A stretch of 32,000 bases of DNA from Candidatus Saccharimonadota bacterium (GTDB lineage Bacteria > Patescibacteriota > Gracilibacteria > BD1-5 > UBA6164). Position 1 is the first letter of the stretch. Every line of letters begins with the position of its first letter. Under the pieces are notes generated by a model, which ran no database searches, was not told the DNA's origin, and worked only from the letters and a program-made list of their open reading frames with translations. Where the stretch lies: assembly GCA_965227835.1 (NCBI GenBank), contig OZ245768.1:180001-212000 (forward strand), read 5' to 3'. Below, in pieces: positions 5,187 through 26,980 of the stretch. The translations under genes and the position numbers were made by a program.

Positions 5187-6044
5187 ATGATAGATAAATT
5201 AAACAAGATATTTCATTACGATCACAAAAAATACGAAAATTTTCTAGATGATGAAAACAACAAACTTTCTATTATCATAAATGAAATTTTTAACTTCCTA
5301 CTTTTACTCTTTGTACTAATATTAGTTATTGAAAGTTTAGATAGCTTTTCTATATATTTCAAAAGAAGCCTTTGGATACTTGATTGTGTTATTTCTTTCA
5401 TTTTTGCTTTTGAATACATATATCGTTTTCTTAGAGCACCAGATAAAGCTAAATTTGTATTTAGCTTTTCTCGTATAATAGATCTCTTGTCCTTTCTACC
5501 ATTTTTCCTTGGATTCTTTTTATTATCAGATTTTGTAAAAGTTATAAGATTACTTAGAGCAATAAGAGTTATTAGCTTTATAAGAAGTATGCCTTTAACA
5601 CATGCATTCCTTCACTCATTTACAGATTATAAAAAAGAATATACAGCAGTTTTCACACTCTTTACAGCAGTTTTATTTATATGAAGCTTCTCAGTATATT
5701 TTTCAGAAAGAAATGTTCCAGATACCCATTTCACATCAATACCAATGACACTTTGGTGGGGTTTAGTAACCATGACCACAGTATGATTTGGAGATATGTA
5801 TCCAATAACTCCTTTAGGTAAATTCCTTTGAAGTATTATAGTATTTCTATGACCAGTTATGTTAGCCTTAAATTCAGCAGTAATGATTATGGTTTTTATG
5901 GACACAGCAAGAAAAGAAAAGTTTTTCTCAAAATATAAGAAGTGAAAAAAATGTGGGAGATGTAGCATACACAATGAAGAAAAAGCAAACTACTGTATTA
6001 TGTGTGGTAAGAAATTCAACCTAATTTCAGAAAATAAAAAATAA
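5187..6044 (+). CDS. voltage-gated-like potassium channel with C-terminal CxxC-x11-CxxC zinc ribbon
   Basis: First ATG at 5187 (the track ORF starts at TTG 5142). S4-like segment [16 protein letters not shown]. Pore: [24 protein letters not shown], where the first filter Gly is TGA 5784-5786. C-terminal tail [27 protein letters not shown] at 6042-6044. Confidence 0.8.
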
Positions 6045-11321: not shown

Positions 11322-11410
11322 TTGATTTTTTTATGTATAAAAATTAAATTTTTTGAAAAGTTTTTTTTACAATAATTTTTTAAATCATTTGTTTCTTCTT
11401 AAATAAAAAT

Positions 11411-11445
11411 CCCCGAAAAGATTATTTTTAATAATCTTTTCGGGG
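11411..11445 (-). terminator. strong hairpin terminator downstream of the tandem-HTH gene
   Basis: ccccgaaaagattatt-ttt-aataatcttttcgggg. On the minus strand it is followed by atttttattt. Confidence 0.65.
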
Positions 11446-11649
11446 TCATATTATCTAAACAATAAAAGACGGTTCCACCCAAAAATTTATCTTTTATAAA
11501 CAATTTTTATTTTCTAATCTATGTTACCATAATAGATTTAAAACGAATATATAAACTATTTAACTAAAGTTCAGTTTATTTTATAGATATTCTTTGTCAA
11601 ATTTTTTTATTTTATTTATTCACCAATGCACTATATATTTATGAAGTTT

Positions 11650-12582
11650 CTAACTATTTACTATTTCCATTTCACTTTTTCAAGTATTTTTTTCTTTAAT
11701 TTTTGATTCTATACATTTTATCATTTTTTTTATTTCGTTTTCTAAATCGTTTATCAATACTATATAATTTATAGAGTATTCAAAAATTTCTTTTCATTTT
11801 GAAGTTAAATTTACTTTTCAATTAACTTGTTCAAAGATTTCTCATCATATAATATTTTTTGTCTTTCTTATATTATGACTAACTGCACTCTGGGTAATTG
11901 ATTTTTTTGATGCGTATTCTGATATTTTACAATCATATTTTACAACTAATTCATATAAAACAAAAAGTATCATGGTTAGATTTTTAGGAATTTGAGATTT
12001 AGGATTTTTTCAAATTATATTTTTTATTACAGTTTCATCATGAAAATCTTTTATTGTATCTATTACTTCAATATCCATATCTTTTAAATCTAATTTTTCA
12101 TCTTCATTACTGAATATTAATAACCTAATATCGCTTTTTAAACTTTCCCATTTTTCTTGATTTACATCTATTGATTTTTTTATATTTAAAATTTCTCTTA
12201 TTCTATATAAAGCATCATTATTTTCTTTAGAGTTTTTACTTTTGATTAAGACATTTAATTCTTTTAATAGGTTAGAAACCATACTTAATTTATATAATAT
12301 ATTTTTTTTAAAGAAATTTATTTCTTTATCGTTACTATTAAGTATATCTATTATATTTTTTCTAGTATTAATATTTGTTATTTTAATTAAATCTTTTATT
12401 TGATGTGAAAATAAAGACTGAGTTAAACCTAATTTATTAGAATATTCACTTAAGTTTACTTGTTTTAAAAATAAGGATAAAGATGCCATTTGAATAATGC
12501 TAATTTTTTTAGGTTCTTTATATTTTTTACTTTCTAAATTCATTTTTAATTTTTTAAAAAATATCAAACTATATATAAACAT
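11650..12582 (-). CDS. DNA-binding protein with two LysR-type HTH motifs and no effector-binding domain
   Basis: Track ORF 12010-12582 continues through TGA 12010-12012 to TAG 11650-11652. N-terminal HTH: LSEYSNKLGLTQSLFSHQIKDL. C-terminal HTH_1-like module: KISEYASKKSITQSAVSHNIRKTKNIIGGEIFEQVNGKVNLTSKGKEIFEY. The real start is probably MNLESKK at 12543. Confidence 0.6.
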
Positions 12583-12672: not shown

Positions 12673-14295
12673 CTAATTTCTTTCTAATTTAAACTTACTT
12701 TCAAAATATATAATATTAAAGACATTTTCTAGAGCTTTTAATAAAGCCATTTCTGTATCGTTATCTACACCAATACCTTCACTAATTTTTCAAGAATTAT
12801 CTTTTTTTACTCTTATTCTTGTTTCAGCTCTTGATCTCTCTCATAATGTTTCTGACTTAGAGCTATAGTCTAATACACTGTATCAAGGGATTTTTCTTGA
12901 TATGTATTCTTTTAATCAAATAAATACCGTTTCTCATTTCAATTCTAAACTATTTTTACCAAAAATTTCTCATTCAAATATTACAGAAATATTTTTGTCT
13001 CATTCTATATTATTTTTGCTATAATTTGATATTTTTATAGGACTCACATATTCAAAATAAAGTTCTAGTAGTTCTTCATCTGTAATTCATTTATATCTAC
13101 CTGTTTCTCTCATTTTTTTCTTCAAAAACTCATCTAGAGATCTTTTATTTTTATGCGAGCATGAATATCATTTAGAATTTATTATACTTATAGCCAAATT
13201 TCAACCAGAATTGGGTCAATATATAAATGATATTTTTGATCAAACTAGTTCAGGATCAAATGCTTGATACACACAAGGATTTTTTAGCATTGCTCTAGTA
13301 TGTCATCCTGAAGTATGTTTCATAGCATTTCCTCAAACAACAGGATAGTTATCTTGTACTTTAAGCATAGATTTAGAAACCATTTTTGAAACTCTATTAA
13401 TATTAGAAGCATTTATATGATCTATATCAAATATATTTTTAAGAGTAGTTTTCATTCTTACTATAATTTGATTTGAATCTGCATTTCAGGCTCTTTCTCA
13501 TATTCAATTTATAGTTGTTTCCACCTTTGAAATTCAAGTTCATTTTAATAGTGCTTCTATACTATTTTGTTCTGCCGTTCATAAATCATTATGATTATGT
13601 ACGGAAAAGATAAATTTGTTTTCAGGAAATACTTTATTCATTATCTCTATATGTTTTTTTATCTTTTCTAAGAAGTATTCTTCGTTTTTGTTATAAATAT
13701 CTTGTCATCATATGGTATCAGGCATATTAAAATATGTGGTTCCATTTTCTCAAGCAGCTATCATAGCTTCAGTACAAAAACCAAAATTTTTTCATATTTT
13801 TGAGTATCATTCGGGAGAAAACTGTACTATAAATCACATATCGTATGCCATTTTTGAAAATTTTGCAATATCTTTAAGCACTTGATTGTCTGATATTTTA
13901 TTTCAAATACTAGCTTTTCTAAGTTCTGGATCAAAAGGGAAGTATATATGAAAAAAACCTTTTTTTATTCATGATAATGGCTCTAATGCTTTTAATGTAG
14001 ATTCTACTTGAAAATCTATCATTTGTGTGAGTCATCATACTATAGTAGAAATTTCTCAGTTTTTGCACATTTTTGCAACTTCATTTACTCTTCTCCATTC
14101 ATTTTTTGAAGAAGAAGGAAATCAAACTTCGCATATATCAAAACCTATATCATCAAGTCACCTTACAATATCAAAGTAATCTTTATCAGATTCTATTCAT
14201 GCCCCGGGACATTGATGTCAATCTCTAAGAGTTGTGTCTAGAAAAATAATTTTTTTCCTTCAATCATCTCCTATGTTTTCTCATTTTGTATTCAT
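12673..14295 (-). CDS. leuA: 2-isopropylmalate synthase family protein (LeuA/homocitrate/citramalate synthase-like)
   Basis: 540 aa. Motifs: IFLDTTLRDGHQCPGAG, FSVHNHNDLGTAEQNSIEAL, ETTINGIGERAGNAD, VVGGNAMKHTSGGH. C-terminal regulatory-domain-like segment: ETRIRVKKDNSGKISEGIGVDNDTEMALLKALENV. TAG at 12673-12675. Confidence 0.85.
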
Positions 14296-14315
14296 AATTT
14301 AAATATTTTAGGAAA

Positions 14316-14398
14316 TAAAAAAGCTCTTTAGTATCTATTTTACCTAAGAGCTAATGTTTATAATTTTTTAATTCACACTAAAAACTGGCTCTTAGGTT
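14316..14398 (-). promoter_or_regulatory. transcription attenuator (alternative antiterminator/terminator) in the leuA leader
   Basis: RNA segment A, ACCUAAGAGC (14398-14389), pairs perfectly with B, GCUCUUAGGU (14351-14342). B also forms a terminator stem with C, CUAAAGAGCU (14331-14322), which is followed by a U-run about 20 nt before the leuA ATG. Confidence 0.7.
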
Positions 14399-14445
14399 TT
14401 TCCTAAAAGCAGTAGTAAAGAAGCTATTTTAAATTCTGTAGACAT
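14392..14445 (-). CDS. leucine-rich leader peptide, 17 aa (MSTEFKIASLLLLLGKT)
   Basis: ATG TCT ACA GAA TTT AAA ATA GCT TCT TTA CTA CTG CTT TTA GGA AAA ACC TAA. It has five consecutive Leu codons, and the stop codon lies inside antiterminator arm A. Confidence 0.65.
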   Translation of the reverse strand: MSTEFKIASLLLLLGKT

Positions 14446-14619
14446 ATTAGTGTGTTAAATCTAATTACAAAACTAATTTATTTTTTTTGTTTGTTTTGTC
14501 AAGAAAATTAGTTAATTTTTAATTATCTGTACCAGTAGATAGGTACCAATATTTATTGATATGGAATTGTGTAAAAAAGAGGATGAGGATATAATAGATT
14601 TTGTAAAAAATTTTACTTT

Positions 14620-15654: not shown

Positions 15655-15954
15655 TTAACAATTTTCTCAAATATTATTTTCCTCTATTTTCAAACTTTCT
15701 TTATGAATTCTATTCCAAATATCAATTATAAAATCTTTGCTTATTCAAAACTCTAAGCCTTTTTCTATATTGTCTCTCAAAAGTTTCTCCCATCTGTTTT
15801 TTTGTAACACAGAAATCTTTTCTTTTTCTTTTATTTCTCATATTTTTTTCACTATAGAAAACCTTTTAAAAAAGAGATAGATAATTTCTTTATCCAAAGA
15901 ATCTATCTCTTTTCTATAGTCTTTTAATAAATTTTCTTTTTTTGTCTCTCACAT
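15655..15954 (-). CDS. chorismate mutase (AroQ/type II)
   Basis: 99 aa: MGETKKENLLKDYRKEIDSLDKEIIYLFFKRFSIVKKIGEIKEKEKISVLQKNRWEKLLRDNIEKGLEFGISKDFIIDIWNRIHKESLKIE. This is the typical LRxEIDxxDxEll..l.kR pattern. Confidence 0.7.
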
Positions 15955-15970
15955 ATTTTTGCTTGTGTTT

Positions 15971-16603
15971 TTATAATTCTGTTTCATCTGAATATGTCTT
16001 TTTTTCTTCTTTTTTATACCAAGTTCCTTCTTCTATTCTTTCTTCTTTAACCTTTATAGAAAAATCTGCTACTTTAAATATCCATCACCTTTTAGCTTCA
16101 GTATCATAATCACTAAATTCTTCAACAACTCAATTTTGTGATGCAAATTCCACAACTTGTTCTTGCCAACTTTTAGATGAGTTCTCATCTATTTCAAAAT
16201 CTGTAAATCATATAGATTTTATTAACATAATTAAAGCTTCTGCTTTGGAAATATTATCTTCTGGTCTGAAAGAATCATTTCTTGATATAAGATTGTTTTC
16301 TACTAAGGCTTCTATATTCTTACATGCCCAATCGTTTGGATTTACACTACTTACATCATCAAATATATTTTTACAATAATTATTTTCTTCTACTCCAGAA
16401 ACTCTCCTAGATATAAGGGCAATTTCTTGTCTCAATACAAAATCATCTAAATTATATAAAGAGGGATCAAAAGATTTATCTTTAATAACTTCTTTTTGTG
16501 CTAGATTATTTGCAGAATCAAGTTCTTCACTTGTATAGGAATTAGCACTATTCAATCAAAATAAAAAAGATAATGCAAGTAATATAAACAATATTTTTTT
16601 CAT
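15971..16603 (-). CDS. secreted protein with an S-layer-homology (SLH) domain
   Basis: Extends track ORF 16208-16555 in both directions. Signal peptide: MKKILFILLALSFLFGLNSANS. SLH-like segment: FDDVSSVNPNDWACKNIEALVENNLISRNDSFRPEDNISKAEALIMLIKSIG. TAA at 15971-15973, 17 nt before the chorismate mutase start. Confidence 0.7.
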
Positions 16604-20243: not shown

Positions 20244-20822
20244 ATGGAATGATTAAGTTTATCAGACGAAAAATCTAATTATTATGTCTTTCGTTCAAGA
20301 TTAATTCGAATTAATACAGTTGTTAATATGCCATTAGAATATTTTTCTGGATTAGGAGTTAGAAAAAGTGATTTTACAGATTCTGAATTAAATGAAATAT
20401 ATGATTTAATAGAAGAATTTTTTTGAAAAGAAAGTTCTGCAAATTATGCTAAAATGATACATAGTATAGATTGTTTTTCAGCTGAAAATTTTATTTTGCA
20501 GTTTGATACATTTTTAGCAAACAATTTTCAATTTAATTGATTAGTAAAGTTATTGAGAATTAAAAAAAGACATTTTTTATATTGAAATCTTAAATCTATT
20601 TGAATATCAGAGCAGTCAATTAACAAAGATTTGCAAATAGATGAAAGTAATTTAATTAAAAATACCTTTACAAGATTAGATATGAAAAAAATTAGAAAAA
20701 CAATAAATAGACAAGGGGAAGAATTATGATGAAAAACTAAAAAATTAATGAAAGAGCAGAATAAAAAATTATGTATTCCATATAAAAAAGAGGTAGATTT
20801 AATCCTAGAAAAAAACTACTAA
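20244..20822 (+). CDS. hypothetical protein, paralog 1 of the helicase-flanking family (192 aa)
   Basis: MEGLSLSDEKSNYYVFRSRLIRINTVVN...DFTDSELNEIYDLIEEFFGKESSANYAKMIHSIDCFSAENFILQFDTFLANNFQFNGLV... The core is shared with 22978-23481. Lys-rich C-terminal tail. Confidence 0.6.
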
Positions 20823-22977: not shown

Positions 22978-23481
22978 ATGGAATCATTAGATACAACAAT
23001 TGAAAGACTTGATTTAGATAAATTCTATTCAAGTTTGAGGAAAATTAATACGGTCATAAATACTTGAGCATGATATTTTGCCTGAGTAAGACCAAGAAAA
23101 GTTGATTTTACAAGTTCTGAATTAAATGAAGTATATGATTTAATAAAGGAACTTTTTTGAGAAGAAAAAGCTGAAAATTATGCTCAAATGGTATATAGCA
23201 TAAATTATTTTTCAGCAGAAAATTTCATTTGTCAGTTTAGAGTATTAGTAAAAAATAACTTTGAGTTTAACTGATTAGTTGAAATTAATACAGGTGATTC
23301 TGCAAGTTCAGAGGGTGAATATATTTGATCATTATTATCTTGAATTAATAGAGATTCATATTCAGATGAGAGTTTTTTAATCAAGAGTACTTTTACAAGA
23401 TGAGATTTTGAAAAGTATGATTATATGGGAGCAAGAAGTTATAAAGATTACTATAAAAGAAGGCTAAAAGCAATTTCATAA
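22978..23481 (+). CDS. hypothetical protein, paralog 2 of the helicase-flanking family (167 aa)
   Basis: MESLDTTIERLDLDKFYSSLRKINTVIN...DFTSSELNEVYDLIKELFGEEKAENYAQMVYSINYFSAENFICQFRVLVKNNFEFNGLV... The C-terminus diverges from paralog 1. Confidence 0.6.
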
Positions 23482-26310: not shown

Positions 26311-26980
26311 TTCAACACATCGGGATAAAAACCCCTATCTTTAGATAGTTAAGACACCGAAGGTGTAAGTGATAGAAATTGAATAAATGAGATGTGTTGT
26401 GACATAGGGTTTTAAACCCCGTTGCCTTCAGGCCGATTCTAAAGAAAAAAGTGTAAAAAATCAATAGAATAAATAAAATAGTGTTAAAAACTAACACTAG
26501 AGAGAATGAAATACCAAAAAAGTAGTCATGCGACATATGATGTCAGATACCATATAGTATGGATAACAAAATACAGAAATCCATTCATGACAAAAGAGAT
26601 ACAAGATAGATTGGAAAAGATCATAAGATGAATAAGTAAAAAGCTATGAGTAATAATAATAAAGATATGAATGGAAGAAGATCATGTACATATATATTGT
26701 AGGATACCGTTAACTAAACCAATATCTACAATAGTATGACATATAAAGTGAGAAAGTTCTAAGGCAATAAAGAGGTATTTTTACAAAGAAATTAAGAGAT
26801 GGTATTGGAAGACATGAAATATATGGTGAGTATGATATTTTGTATCTAGTGTATGAGAGATAAATTGAGAAATAATATCTAATTATGTGGAACAACAGTG
26901 AGAAGAAGAGAATAAGATTGAAGAGATAGAGCTTTAAATTTCAGTACAAATAAAAGCCCCGTGCCTTCAGGCCGGGGTAG
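26311..26980 (+). mobile_element. IS200-type (IS200/IS605 family, tnpA-only) insertion sequence
   Basis: Y1 transposase gene flanked by GC-rich subterminal hairpins sharing cccgt(t)gccttcaggccg (left 26417-26435, right 26957-26977). Left-end long-range stem caacacatc/gatgtgttg (26313-26321 / 26391-26399). Hairpin tagtgtt-N7-aacacta sits just upstream of the start codon. Outer boundaries are approximate. Confidence 0.75.
26506..26937 (+). CDS. tnpA: IS200/IS605-family Y1 (HUH) transposase TnpA
   Basis: 143 aa with about 12 TGA-Gly codons. MKYQKSSHATYDVRYHIVWITKYRNPFMTKEIQDRL..., EEDHVHIYCRIP (HUH), WGVGYFVSSVGEINGEIISNYVEQQ (catalytic Tyr). Confidence 0.9.

Follow-up and report, generated by a model that had tools for sequence, protein, structure and literature searches.

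The 32,000-nt stretch of DNA analysed here (the window; positions 180,001 to 212,000 of contig OZ245768.1, from a member of the Gracilibacteria) carries on its minus strand a leuA-like gene preceded by a promoter, a short open reading frame (ORF) containing a stretch of leucine codons and a series of mutually complementary RNA segments, an arrangement that we interpret as a leucine-responsive transcription attenuator. The window is 24.8% G+C; read with the standard bacterial code it holds almost no long ORFs, and with TGA read as a sense codon it gives a dense gene map. TGA is the dominant glycine codon of the window genes (372 in-frame TGA versus 122 GGN codons) and occupies conserved glycine positions, for example in the RDGHQ motif of the leuA-like gene. 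Because TGA outnumbers GGN and sits at conserved glycines, the host uses genetic code 25 (UGA = Gly), the usage of the Gracilibacteria and Absconditabacteria. Database relatives of the LeuA protein have tryptophan at these TGA positions, which implies that the relatives were called with code 4 and not with code 25. The promoter, the leader and the regulated gene comprise the following features.

14475 to 14502, minus strand: sigma-70-type promoter, with the -35 element TTGACA at 14502-14497, a 16-nt spacer and the -10 element TAAATT at 14480-14475 (10 of 12 consensus matches).
14392 to 14445, minus strand: leader ORF of 17 codons plus TAA, MSTEFKIASLLLLLGKT, with the ATG at 14445-14443 and the TAA at 14394-14392; an in-frame TAA precedes it.
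14404 to 14418, minus strand: candidate regulatory codons, five consecutive leucine codons (TTA CTA CTG CTT TTA) read from the sequence.
14402 to 14410, minus strand: segment 1, GCUUUUAGG, extendable to 14413, made up of the last leucine codons plus GG and pairing with segment 2 in the minimum free energy (MFE) fold and in a terminator scan.
14388 to 14397, minus strand: segment 2, ACCUAAGAGC (ACCTAAGAGC; earlier called A), which holds the leader stop codon and has segment 1 or segment 3 as its partner.
14342 to 14351, minus strand: segment 3, GCUCUUAGGU (GCTCTTAGGT; earlier called B), serving as 5' arm in the terminator and as 3' arm in the antiterminator.
14313 to 14331, minus strand: segment 4, CUAAAGAGCU (CTAAAGAGCT; earlier called C; 14331-14322), plus the U-tract UUUUUAUUU, the 3' arm of the intrinsic terminator.
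12673 to 14295, minus strand: regulated gene, an ORF of the LeuA family (2-isopropylmalate synthase-like), 540 amino acids under code 25, with its ATG at 14295.

Much of this layout had been recognised in a preliminary description of the locus. The TTGACA element at 14502-14497 upstream of the leuA ATG at 14295, the 17-codon ORF with five consecutive leucine codons (14445-14392), segments B (14351-14342) and C (14331-14322) and the U-run are all present as it gave them, and the -10 element TAAATT is added here. Its segment A had the right sequence and does contain the stop codon, but the coordinates given, 14398-14389, were one base off, the correct ones being 14397-14388. The UGA recoding that it assumed agrees with the codon counts and conserved glycines above, and CUG, which it had taken to be rare, accounts for 2.1% of the 794 leucine codons in the window genes. 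No TGA codon occurs in the leader (14296-14510, minus strand). A Shine-Dalgarno (SD)-like motif was seen at none of the 21 gene starts inspected in the window, and the leader ORF and leuA likewise lack one; because the other window genes do without it, its absence at the leader ORF says nothing for or against translation.

The segments are predicted to form three alternative helices. Segments 1 and 2 give a hairpin of -11 to -13 kcal/mol (GCUUUUAGG with CCUAAGAGC, spanning 14410-14388 in the terminator-like scan), followed by a U-run at 14383-14379. Segments 2 and 3 pair over 10 bp at -17.2 kcal/mol, an energy reached by none of 500 shuffles. Segments 3 and 4 give a hairpin of -10.5 kcal/mol with 7 and 4 base pairs around one bulge; segment 4 is followed by TTTTT-A-TTT, so that the terminator ends about 20 nt before the leuA ATG. 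Because segment 1, which consists of the last leucine codons, also pairs with segment 2, the predicted layout is that of a full four-segment classical attenuator with 1:2, 2:3 and 3:4 helices.

Folding of the full-length window leader, with the ribosome mimicked by a 28-nt unpairable stretch, gave structures that depended on where the ribosome was placed. The whole leader has an MFE of -35 kcal/mol (z = -3.05 against dinucleotide shuffles). In the masked folds, the leader without a ribosome was predicted to form the 1:2 hairpin and the 3:4 terminator (-26.4 kcal/mol); with any of leucine codons 1 to 4 in the A site, the 2:3 antiterminator became the MFE structure (-17.7 / -16.1 kcal/mol); and with the ribosome at the fifth leucine codon or at the stop codon, segment 2 was covered and the terminator formed (-14.1 / -12.9 kcal/mol). 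The 10-bp pairing of A with B, the intrinsic terminator formed by B and C, and the switching logic of the preliminary description, in which a stalled ribosome favours the antiterminator and a ribosome at the stop codon favours the terminator, are all upheld by these calculations, which add an untranslated, terminating state; the classical leu-operon design that it proposed is likewise supported and is extended to four segments by segment 1, which it had missed.

We therefore consider it very likely that the element is a classical ribosome-mediated (leader-peptide) transcription attenuator that senses leucine through charged tRNA-Leu and controls the leuA-like gene. A cluster of codons for the amino acid of the pathway, a terminator, an antiterminator, a suitable stall geometry and a 1:2 helix were each found, so that every sequence-level hallmark of the class that we looked for is predicted to be present. 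We infer that the leader is translated, that polymerase pauses, that transcription is coupled to translation and that the system responds to leucine. We propose that transcription would begin at the TTGACA/TAAATT promoter and that the 1:2 hairpin with its U-run would form first, probably pausing RNA polymerase until a ribosome starts on the 17-codon leader, by analogy with the trp leader. When charged Leu-tRNA is scarce, the ribosome would stall at leucine codons 1 to 4, with segment 1 melted and segment 2 free to pair with the emerging segment 3; the terminator would then fail to form and polymerase would enter leuA. When Leu-tRNA is ample, the ribosome would reach the UAA inside segment 2 and mask that segment, allowing the 3:4 terminator to stop transcription about 20 nt before leuA. 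If the leader is not translated, both the 1:2 and the 3:4 helices would form, and termination would again be expected.

The strongest evidence for this reading comes from comparison with related loci. A protein search with the 540-amino-acid product recovered a tight clade (53-67% identity), which provided nine distinct recoded relatives (L001/L002, L003, L004, L005, L006, L007, L008, L009/L010 and L011; LeuA 53-65% identical) and one standard-code relative (L012, 44% identity), making ten independent relatives with upstream DNA. One 93% match (P0001) was left out, as it was apparently the window protein itself, translated with Trp at TGA; the differences looked like G/W swaps only. A search of genome contigs with the single protein as query gave no match, and a search of the same contigs with the clade alignment returned mostly ordinary Acetobacteraceae LeuA proteins (27-30% identity) together with only two clade loci, L013, which shares its contig with L004, and L014, for which upstream DNA is lacking. 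Two clade members occur in GTDB species genomes, one in a metagenome-assembled genome labelled Candidatus Gracilibacteria (67% identity) and the other in one labelled Candidatus Peribacteria. These labels, taken with code 25, assign the window to the Gracilibacteria lineage of the candidate phyla radiation (Patescibacteria).

The layout of the leader is kept in all ten relatives, and the element thereby passes the test set in the preliminary description, that of a leucine-run ORF and A/B/C complementarity in relatives. Each has an ATG-started ORF whose leucine run begins 141-159 nt before the leuA ATG, a hairpin whose T-run stops 16-29 nt short of that ATG, and a segment just 3' of the leucine run that is complementary to the 5' arm of the terminator. 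Each also has a -35 element of the form TTGA(C/T)(A/T) (TTGACA or TTGACT, with TTGATT in L009), a 16-nt spacer and a TAnnn(T/A) -10 element, located about 50-60 nt upstream of the leader ATG, the same distance as in the window. The leader peptides are MKIIFSSFLLLLLGKS, MRTVFNTSLLLLLG, MTYKSTTNLLLLLGHILRG, MTTQINISTLLLLLLEKSKSLFVVV, MTQNKKSLSLLLLLLVTKLRAIFRY, MKRIFTQTLLLTLGTFLEVVFLV, MTYVSTTILLLILGTSLRTDFVM, MRMVFTSTLLLILGTSLRTVFIA, MYSKNLLLTLTLVLDTFLRVFK and MKQQNLLLLELKKVHW, and the layout persists despite a per-column identity of only about 56% in the leader alignment. The part of the leucine run upstream of segment 1, beyond the 1:2 helix, is written in different synonymous codons from locus to locus, all of them for leucine. 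Because these codons vary synonymously and yet remain leucine codons, as expected of a regulatory run that is translated, selection seems to act on translation and not on the RNA sequence alone. Rare leucine codons (CTG and CTA) are enriched in several leaders, and in the relatives of higher G+C the run is made largely of these two codons.

The predicted helices are conserved as well. Across all 11 loci, the window included, the 2:3 duplex has an energy of -11 to -18 kcal/mol (p <= 0.01 against shuffles in each locus), and segment 2 starts about 20 nt after the first leucine codon. The 3:4 terminators range from -10.5 to -18.5 kcal/mol (-10.9 to -18.5 in the relatives), comparable to the 2:3 duplexes. 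Segments 2 and 3 change together by lineage, the pairs being CCUAAGAG/CUCUUAGG, CCUGAGG/CUUCAGG and GGUAAACAG/CUGUUUACC. Because lineage-specific indels shift the pairing register, a column-wise covariation count was unusable for this helix, and we replaced it with a cross-locus energy matrix, which showed a clear block structure with a mean of -16.0 kcal/mol for cognate and -10.7 kcal/mol for non-cognate pairs. RNAalifold applied to the relatives alone recovered the 1:2 and 3:4 helices, with compensatory changes in 7 of 17 pairs.

These comparisons bear directly on whether the element could be a chance ORF that happens to adjoin an unremarkable terminator or insulator within AT-rich sequence between genes. 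A run of at least five leucine codons is not significant on its own, since about one is expected per 32 kb over six frames at this composition, and AT-rich DNA offers many promoter-like sites. Against this, a covariance model (R1) built from the relatives' leaders only, without the window, matched the window leader over its full length at 14307-14445(-) with 67.4 bits (E = 4e-10), the next best match in the window scoring 21 bits. Together with the 2:3 pairing that beats shuffles in every locus and its cognate specificity, this result effectively refutes a chance origin. The element is moreover kept in all ten relatives and in more distant standard-code homologues, and its terminator stands between a conserved promoter and the gene that it precedes, so that we regard the probability of coincidence as exceedingly small.

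Conservation of the RNA could also be explained if the switch were real but set by a bound protein or small ligand, as proposed for the actinobacterial LEU element, the leucine-run ORF being a by-product of segment 1. Segments 1 and 3 are indeed alike (CUUUUAGG / CUCUUAGG), as are segments 2 and 4, and the likeness of the former pair implies that part of the leucine run is constrained by RNA pairing. The next gene downstream in the window encodes LysR-type helix-turn-helix (HTH) domains, and in Streptomyces, according to the account in PMC1262725, leader-codon mutations did not fit classical attenuation. We nevertheless judge this explanation improbable: in the 11 loci the first two or three leucine codons, which lie outside the 1:2 helix, are always leucine and vary synonymously (TTA/CTA/CTG/CTT), and conservation extends to the ATG starts, to the reading frames and to stop codons placed within or after segment 2. 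The HTH gene, in turn, is not conserved beside leuA in the relatives, and no known riboswitch or T-box matched the leader.

Nor does the peptide itself appear to be what is conserved. An independent role for a small hydrophobic peptide, for instance in the membrane, with the hairpins as its terminator and an unrelated structure, would fit the hydrophobic character of the leader product and the terminator-like 1:2 hairpin and U-run directly after the ORF. However, only the leucine run, often followed by glycine, is conserved among peptides that vary in length from 14 to 25 amino acids, and their C-terminal residues track the sequence of the RNA helix. Whatever the flanking genes, the ORF directly precedes leuA in every case, and such a function, which would leave the conserved pairing of segment 2 with the terminator unexplained, is very improbable.

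T-boxes, which sense tRNA, are common on leu and ilv genes in Firmicutes, and a T-box-like leader seemingly precedes glyS in the same window, so a leucine-specific T-box was also considered as the basis of leuA control. It was refuted at the sequence level: no Rfam T-box matched the leuA leader at E <= 10, the only GGTGGNACCG motif in the window lies at 11470-11479, in a different leader, and no stem I or specifier architecture was seen, the ORF and the four segments taking up all of the approximately 130 nt. We assign this possibility a next to negligible probability. More generally, no leader family in Rfam, including the enterobacterial Leu_leader, matched the window leader at E <= 10, and in 20 related loci nothing but tRNA reached the gathering score.

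The leader of glyS is an observation in its own right. It lies at 11400-11605 (minus strand), within a 328-nt intergenic region before a 95-amino-acid ORF and glyS, and comprises a TTGACA element, a small hairpin with the loop AUGGUAAC, a T-box-like motif GGGUGGAACCG (11480-11470) and a strong terminator (CCCCGAAAAGAUU...AAUCUUUUCGGGG) with a U-run. The same layout, with the hairpin loop AUGG(G/A)AAC, occurs just downstream of leuA in three of the relatives (L001, L007 and L008). In appearance it would be a very short T-box leader specific for glycine, and a search for the Rfam T-box in it gave no match even at E <= 1.

In its proposed mechanism the leuA element is of the textbook leu, trp or his type, and the leuL attenuator of E. 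coli and Salmonella is among the closest known systems. Both have a short ORF with consecutive, partly rare leucine codons, mutually exclusive 1:2, 2:3 and 3:4 helices and an intrinsic terminator just before leuA, and neither design requires a trans-acting protein; rare CUA codons occur in the E. coli leu leader. In contrast, no sequence or covariance-model similarity to leuL is detectable, the leuL peptide has 28 amino acids as against 17 in the window, and the window leader has its stop codon inside segment 2 and precedes a lone leuA, not leuABCD, in a host that lacks SD motifs and reads UGA as glycine. The actinobacterial LEU element likewise has an upstream ORF with a leucine-codon run and alternative RNA structures before leuA; Seliverstov et al. 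2005 (PMC1262725) describe it as a pseudoknot, lacking a terminator, in which the leucine run pairs with the leuA SD box, and consider classical attenuation unlikely there. The window leader differs in having a terminator and U-tract, in pairing its leucine run with segment 2 and not with the leuA start, and in preceding a leuA that has no SD box. Outside the Proteobacteria, the ilv-leu operon of S. aureus is described in PMC5794164 as having a leucine-rich attenuator peptide that acts with CodY; going by that description, it resembles the window element in its leucine-rich leader peptide and branched-chain genes and differs in phylum, in operon and in the involvement of CodY. Full-text searches of the available literature library found no report of a leader peptide or of attenuation in Gracilibacteria, the candidate phyla radiation (CPR) or Patescibacteria, consistent with the earlier remark that the design was undescribed in UGA-recoded CPR bacteria.

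The gene under presumed control encodes a divergent member of the LeuA family. The best NCBIfam matches of the 540-amino-acid product were LeuA models (223 bits, well below the equivalog cut-offs of 532-599), its Pfam domains are HMGL-like, HCS_D2 and LeuA_dimer, and the closest solved structures are isopropylmalate synthases (3rmj and 6e1j), ahead of homocitrate and citramalate synthases. Isopropylmalate synthase is thus the best match among both families and solved structures. Together with its relatives the protein defines a distinct LeuA subfamily marked by the motifs FHIYFP(V)DP and QFSPEGYS.

The neighbours of leuA in the recoded loci include genes for chorismate mutase, glycyl-tRNA synthetase, an M48 peptidase, SLH proteins and others. 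Directly downstream of leuA in the window (11650-12582, minus strand) lies the gene for a 310-amino-acid protein. Towards the C-terminus of this protein (residues 224-264) is an HTH_1 domain of the LysR type, and another, weak HTH-like match falls near residue 40; a LysR effector domain is absent. A stand-alone type II chorismate mutase (CM_2) gene is found near leuA in the window (15655-15987, minus strand) and also in L001, L005 and L007, another isolated amino-acid-pathway enzyme in these reduced genomes.

Several points weigh against classical attenuation of leuA. We know of no demonstration of transcription-translation coupling in CPR bacteria. Within the local neighbourhoods available, neither leuBCD nor ilv genes lie next to leuA in the window or in any recoded relative, and because no such gene adjoins leuA, the physiological sense of leucine control over a lone leuA in so reduced a genome is unclear and puzzling. 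In full-length equilibrium folds with a stalled ribosome, the terminator is kept in several relatives and the antiterminator is not favoured in most of them. We treated this result as a limit of equilibrium folding and hence also folded transcripts cut before segment 4: with the ribosome stalled at leucine codons 1 to 3, the 2:3 helix formed in all 11 loci, and with the ribosome at the stop codon it was lost or reduced. Read-through in those relatives would then have to depend on 2:3 forming first during transcription; folding order during transcription is also decisive in classical attenuators. Finally, the S. coelicolor leuA and ilvB leaders, which look similar, behaved non-classically when mutated, as summarised in PMC1262725 (citing its ref. 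22).

Standard-code homologues extend the association of leader and gene well beyond the recoded lineage. A metagenome scan with the subfamily motif region identified 21 standard-code loci (L093-L113) of 41-58% G+C, and 16 of them have an ATG-started leader ORF with a run of at least three leucines (for example MLGLLLLSTC and MTNTSTLDRNSNLLLGLLLGGLLLLSDST); in a seventeenth, L093, the leucine run is cut off at the contig end. An automated search detected a terminator (GGCUCUGUC...GACAGAGCC plus U) just before the gene in nine of these loci, and the stop codon often lies inside segment 2 (TAGACAGAGCC). In the remaining loci the automated search returned no terminator or another hairpin, and inspection by eye revealed similar hairpins with weaker T-runs. 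These leaders, with that of L012, share with the window lineage the LeuA subfamily (the FHIYFP motif clade), the leucine-run ORF, the terminator/antiterminator logic and a stop codon within or near segment 2. Those of L093-L113 differ in their helices (GACAGAGCC/GGCUCUGUC as against CCUAAGAG/CUCUUAGG in the window lineage), and the standard-code leaders also differ in their higher G+C, in being often longer, with two or three leucine clusters, and in the presence of ilvD after leuA. Comparable proteobacterial leuA attenuators are said to have been predicted by Vitreschak and colleagues in 2004.

The gene following leuA was ilvD-like in 8 of 10 standard-code loci examined, with one assignment verified at 694 bits. 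Because ilvD follows in these loci, the LeuA subfamily is, as far as gene context can indicate, a genuine branched-chain amino acid enzyme. The leucine attenuator likewise appears to be a regular companion of this subfamily across phyla and not a peculiarity of CPR bacteria, and since standard-code relatives retain the leader ahead of the gene, the gene and its cis-regulator would seem to travel as a unit. The gap between leuA and ilvD is about 270-430 nt in L096, L100, L102, L104, L107, L108, L110 and L113, which leaves room for a second leader.

The design proposed here is thus an ordinary, textbook one; what stands out is its occurrence in a code-25, SD-less, reduced genome, where it would control an apparently isolated leuA. 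A LeuA-family gene under leucine control without neighbouring leuBCD or ilv genes in every recoded locus seen is a puzzle. One speculative solution, which we think unlikely on balance, is that Gracilibacteria keep, or have acquired horizontally, a self-contained attenuator and LeuA cassette as an orphan gene without other leucine-pathway genes in the genome, such that starvation for Leu-tRNA switches the enzyme on for a purpose other than a complete leucine pathway within the cell. That purpose could possibly be a pathway shared with the host cell or a different 2-oxoacid condensation. If this were true, ribosome-polymerase coupling would operate in code-25 CPR bacteria.

Leader-peptide attenuation requires no regulatory protein, just coupled transcription and translation and an intrinsic terminator, and these ultra-small symbionts have few recognisable regulators. 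A well-conserved attenuator in Gracilibacteria would constitute indirect evidence for coupling and for amino-acid-responsive control in ultra-small symbionts with a reassigned stop codon. Annotators of these genomes gain a defined cis-regulatory element together with a covariance model.

One relative, L004, has a second leader built in this way directly downstream of leuA (5608-5800, plus strand). It has a TTGACA element, the ORF MQLQTSLIVLVLVVLVSKLRDFGSA, in which Leu, Val and Ile are frequent, and a terminator (AAAACUCUCUUAG...CUAAGAGAGUUUUUUU), and it scored 55.9 bits (E = 2e-7) with model R1; the next gene encodes 170 amino acids and has no family match. Within the speculative cassette reading above, this second leader would be a sign of a small starvation regulon under attenuation control in these symbionts.

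Two further observations, both made by eye, concern other window genes. The ORF at 26506-26937 (plus strand), which starts MKYQKSSHATYDVRYHIVWITKYR, resembles a TnpA transposase of the IS200/IS605 type. An N-terminal (R/K)INT.(I/V)N motif is common to the window ORFs at 20244-20822 and 22978-23481 (both plus strand) and to the gene behind the second leader of L004 (5808-6320).

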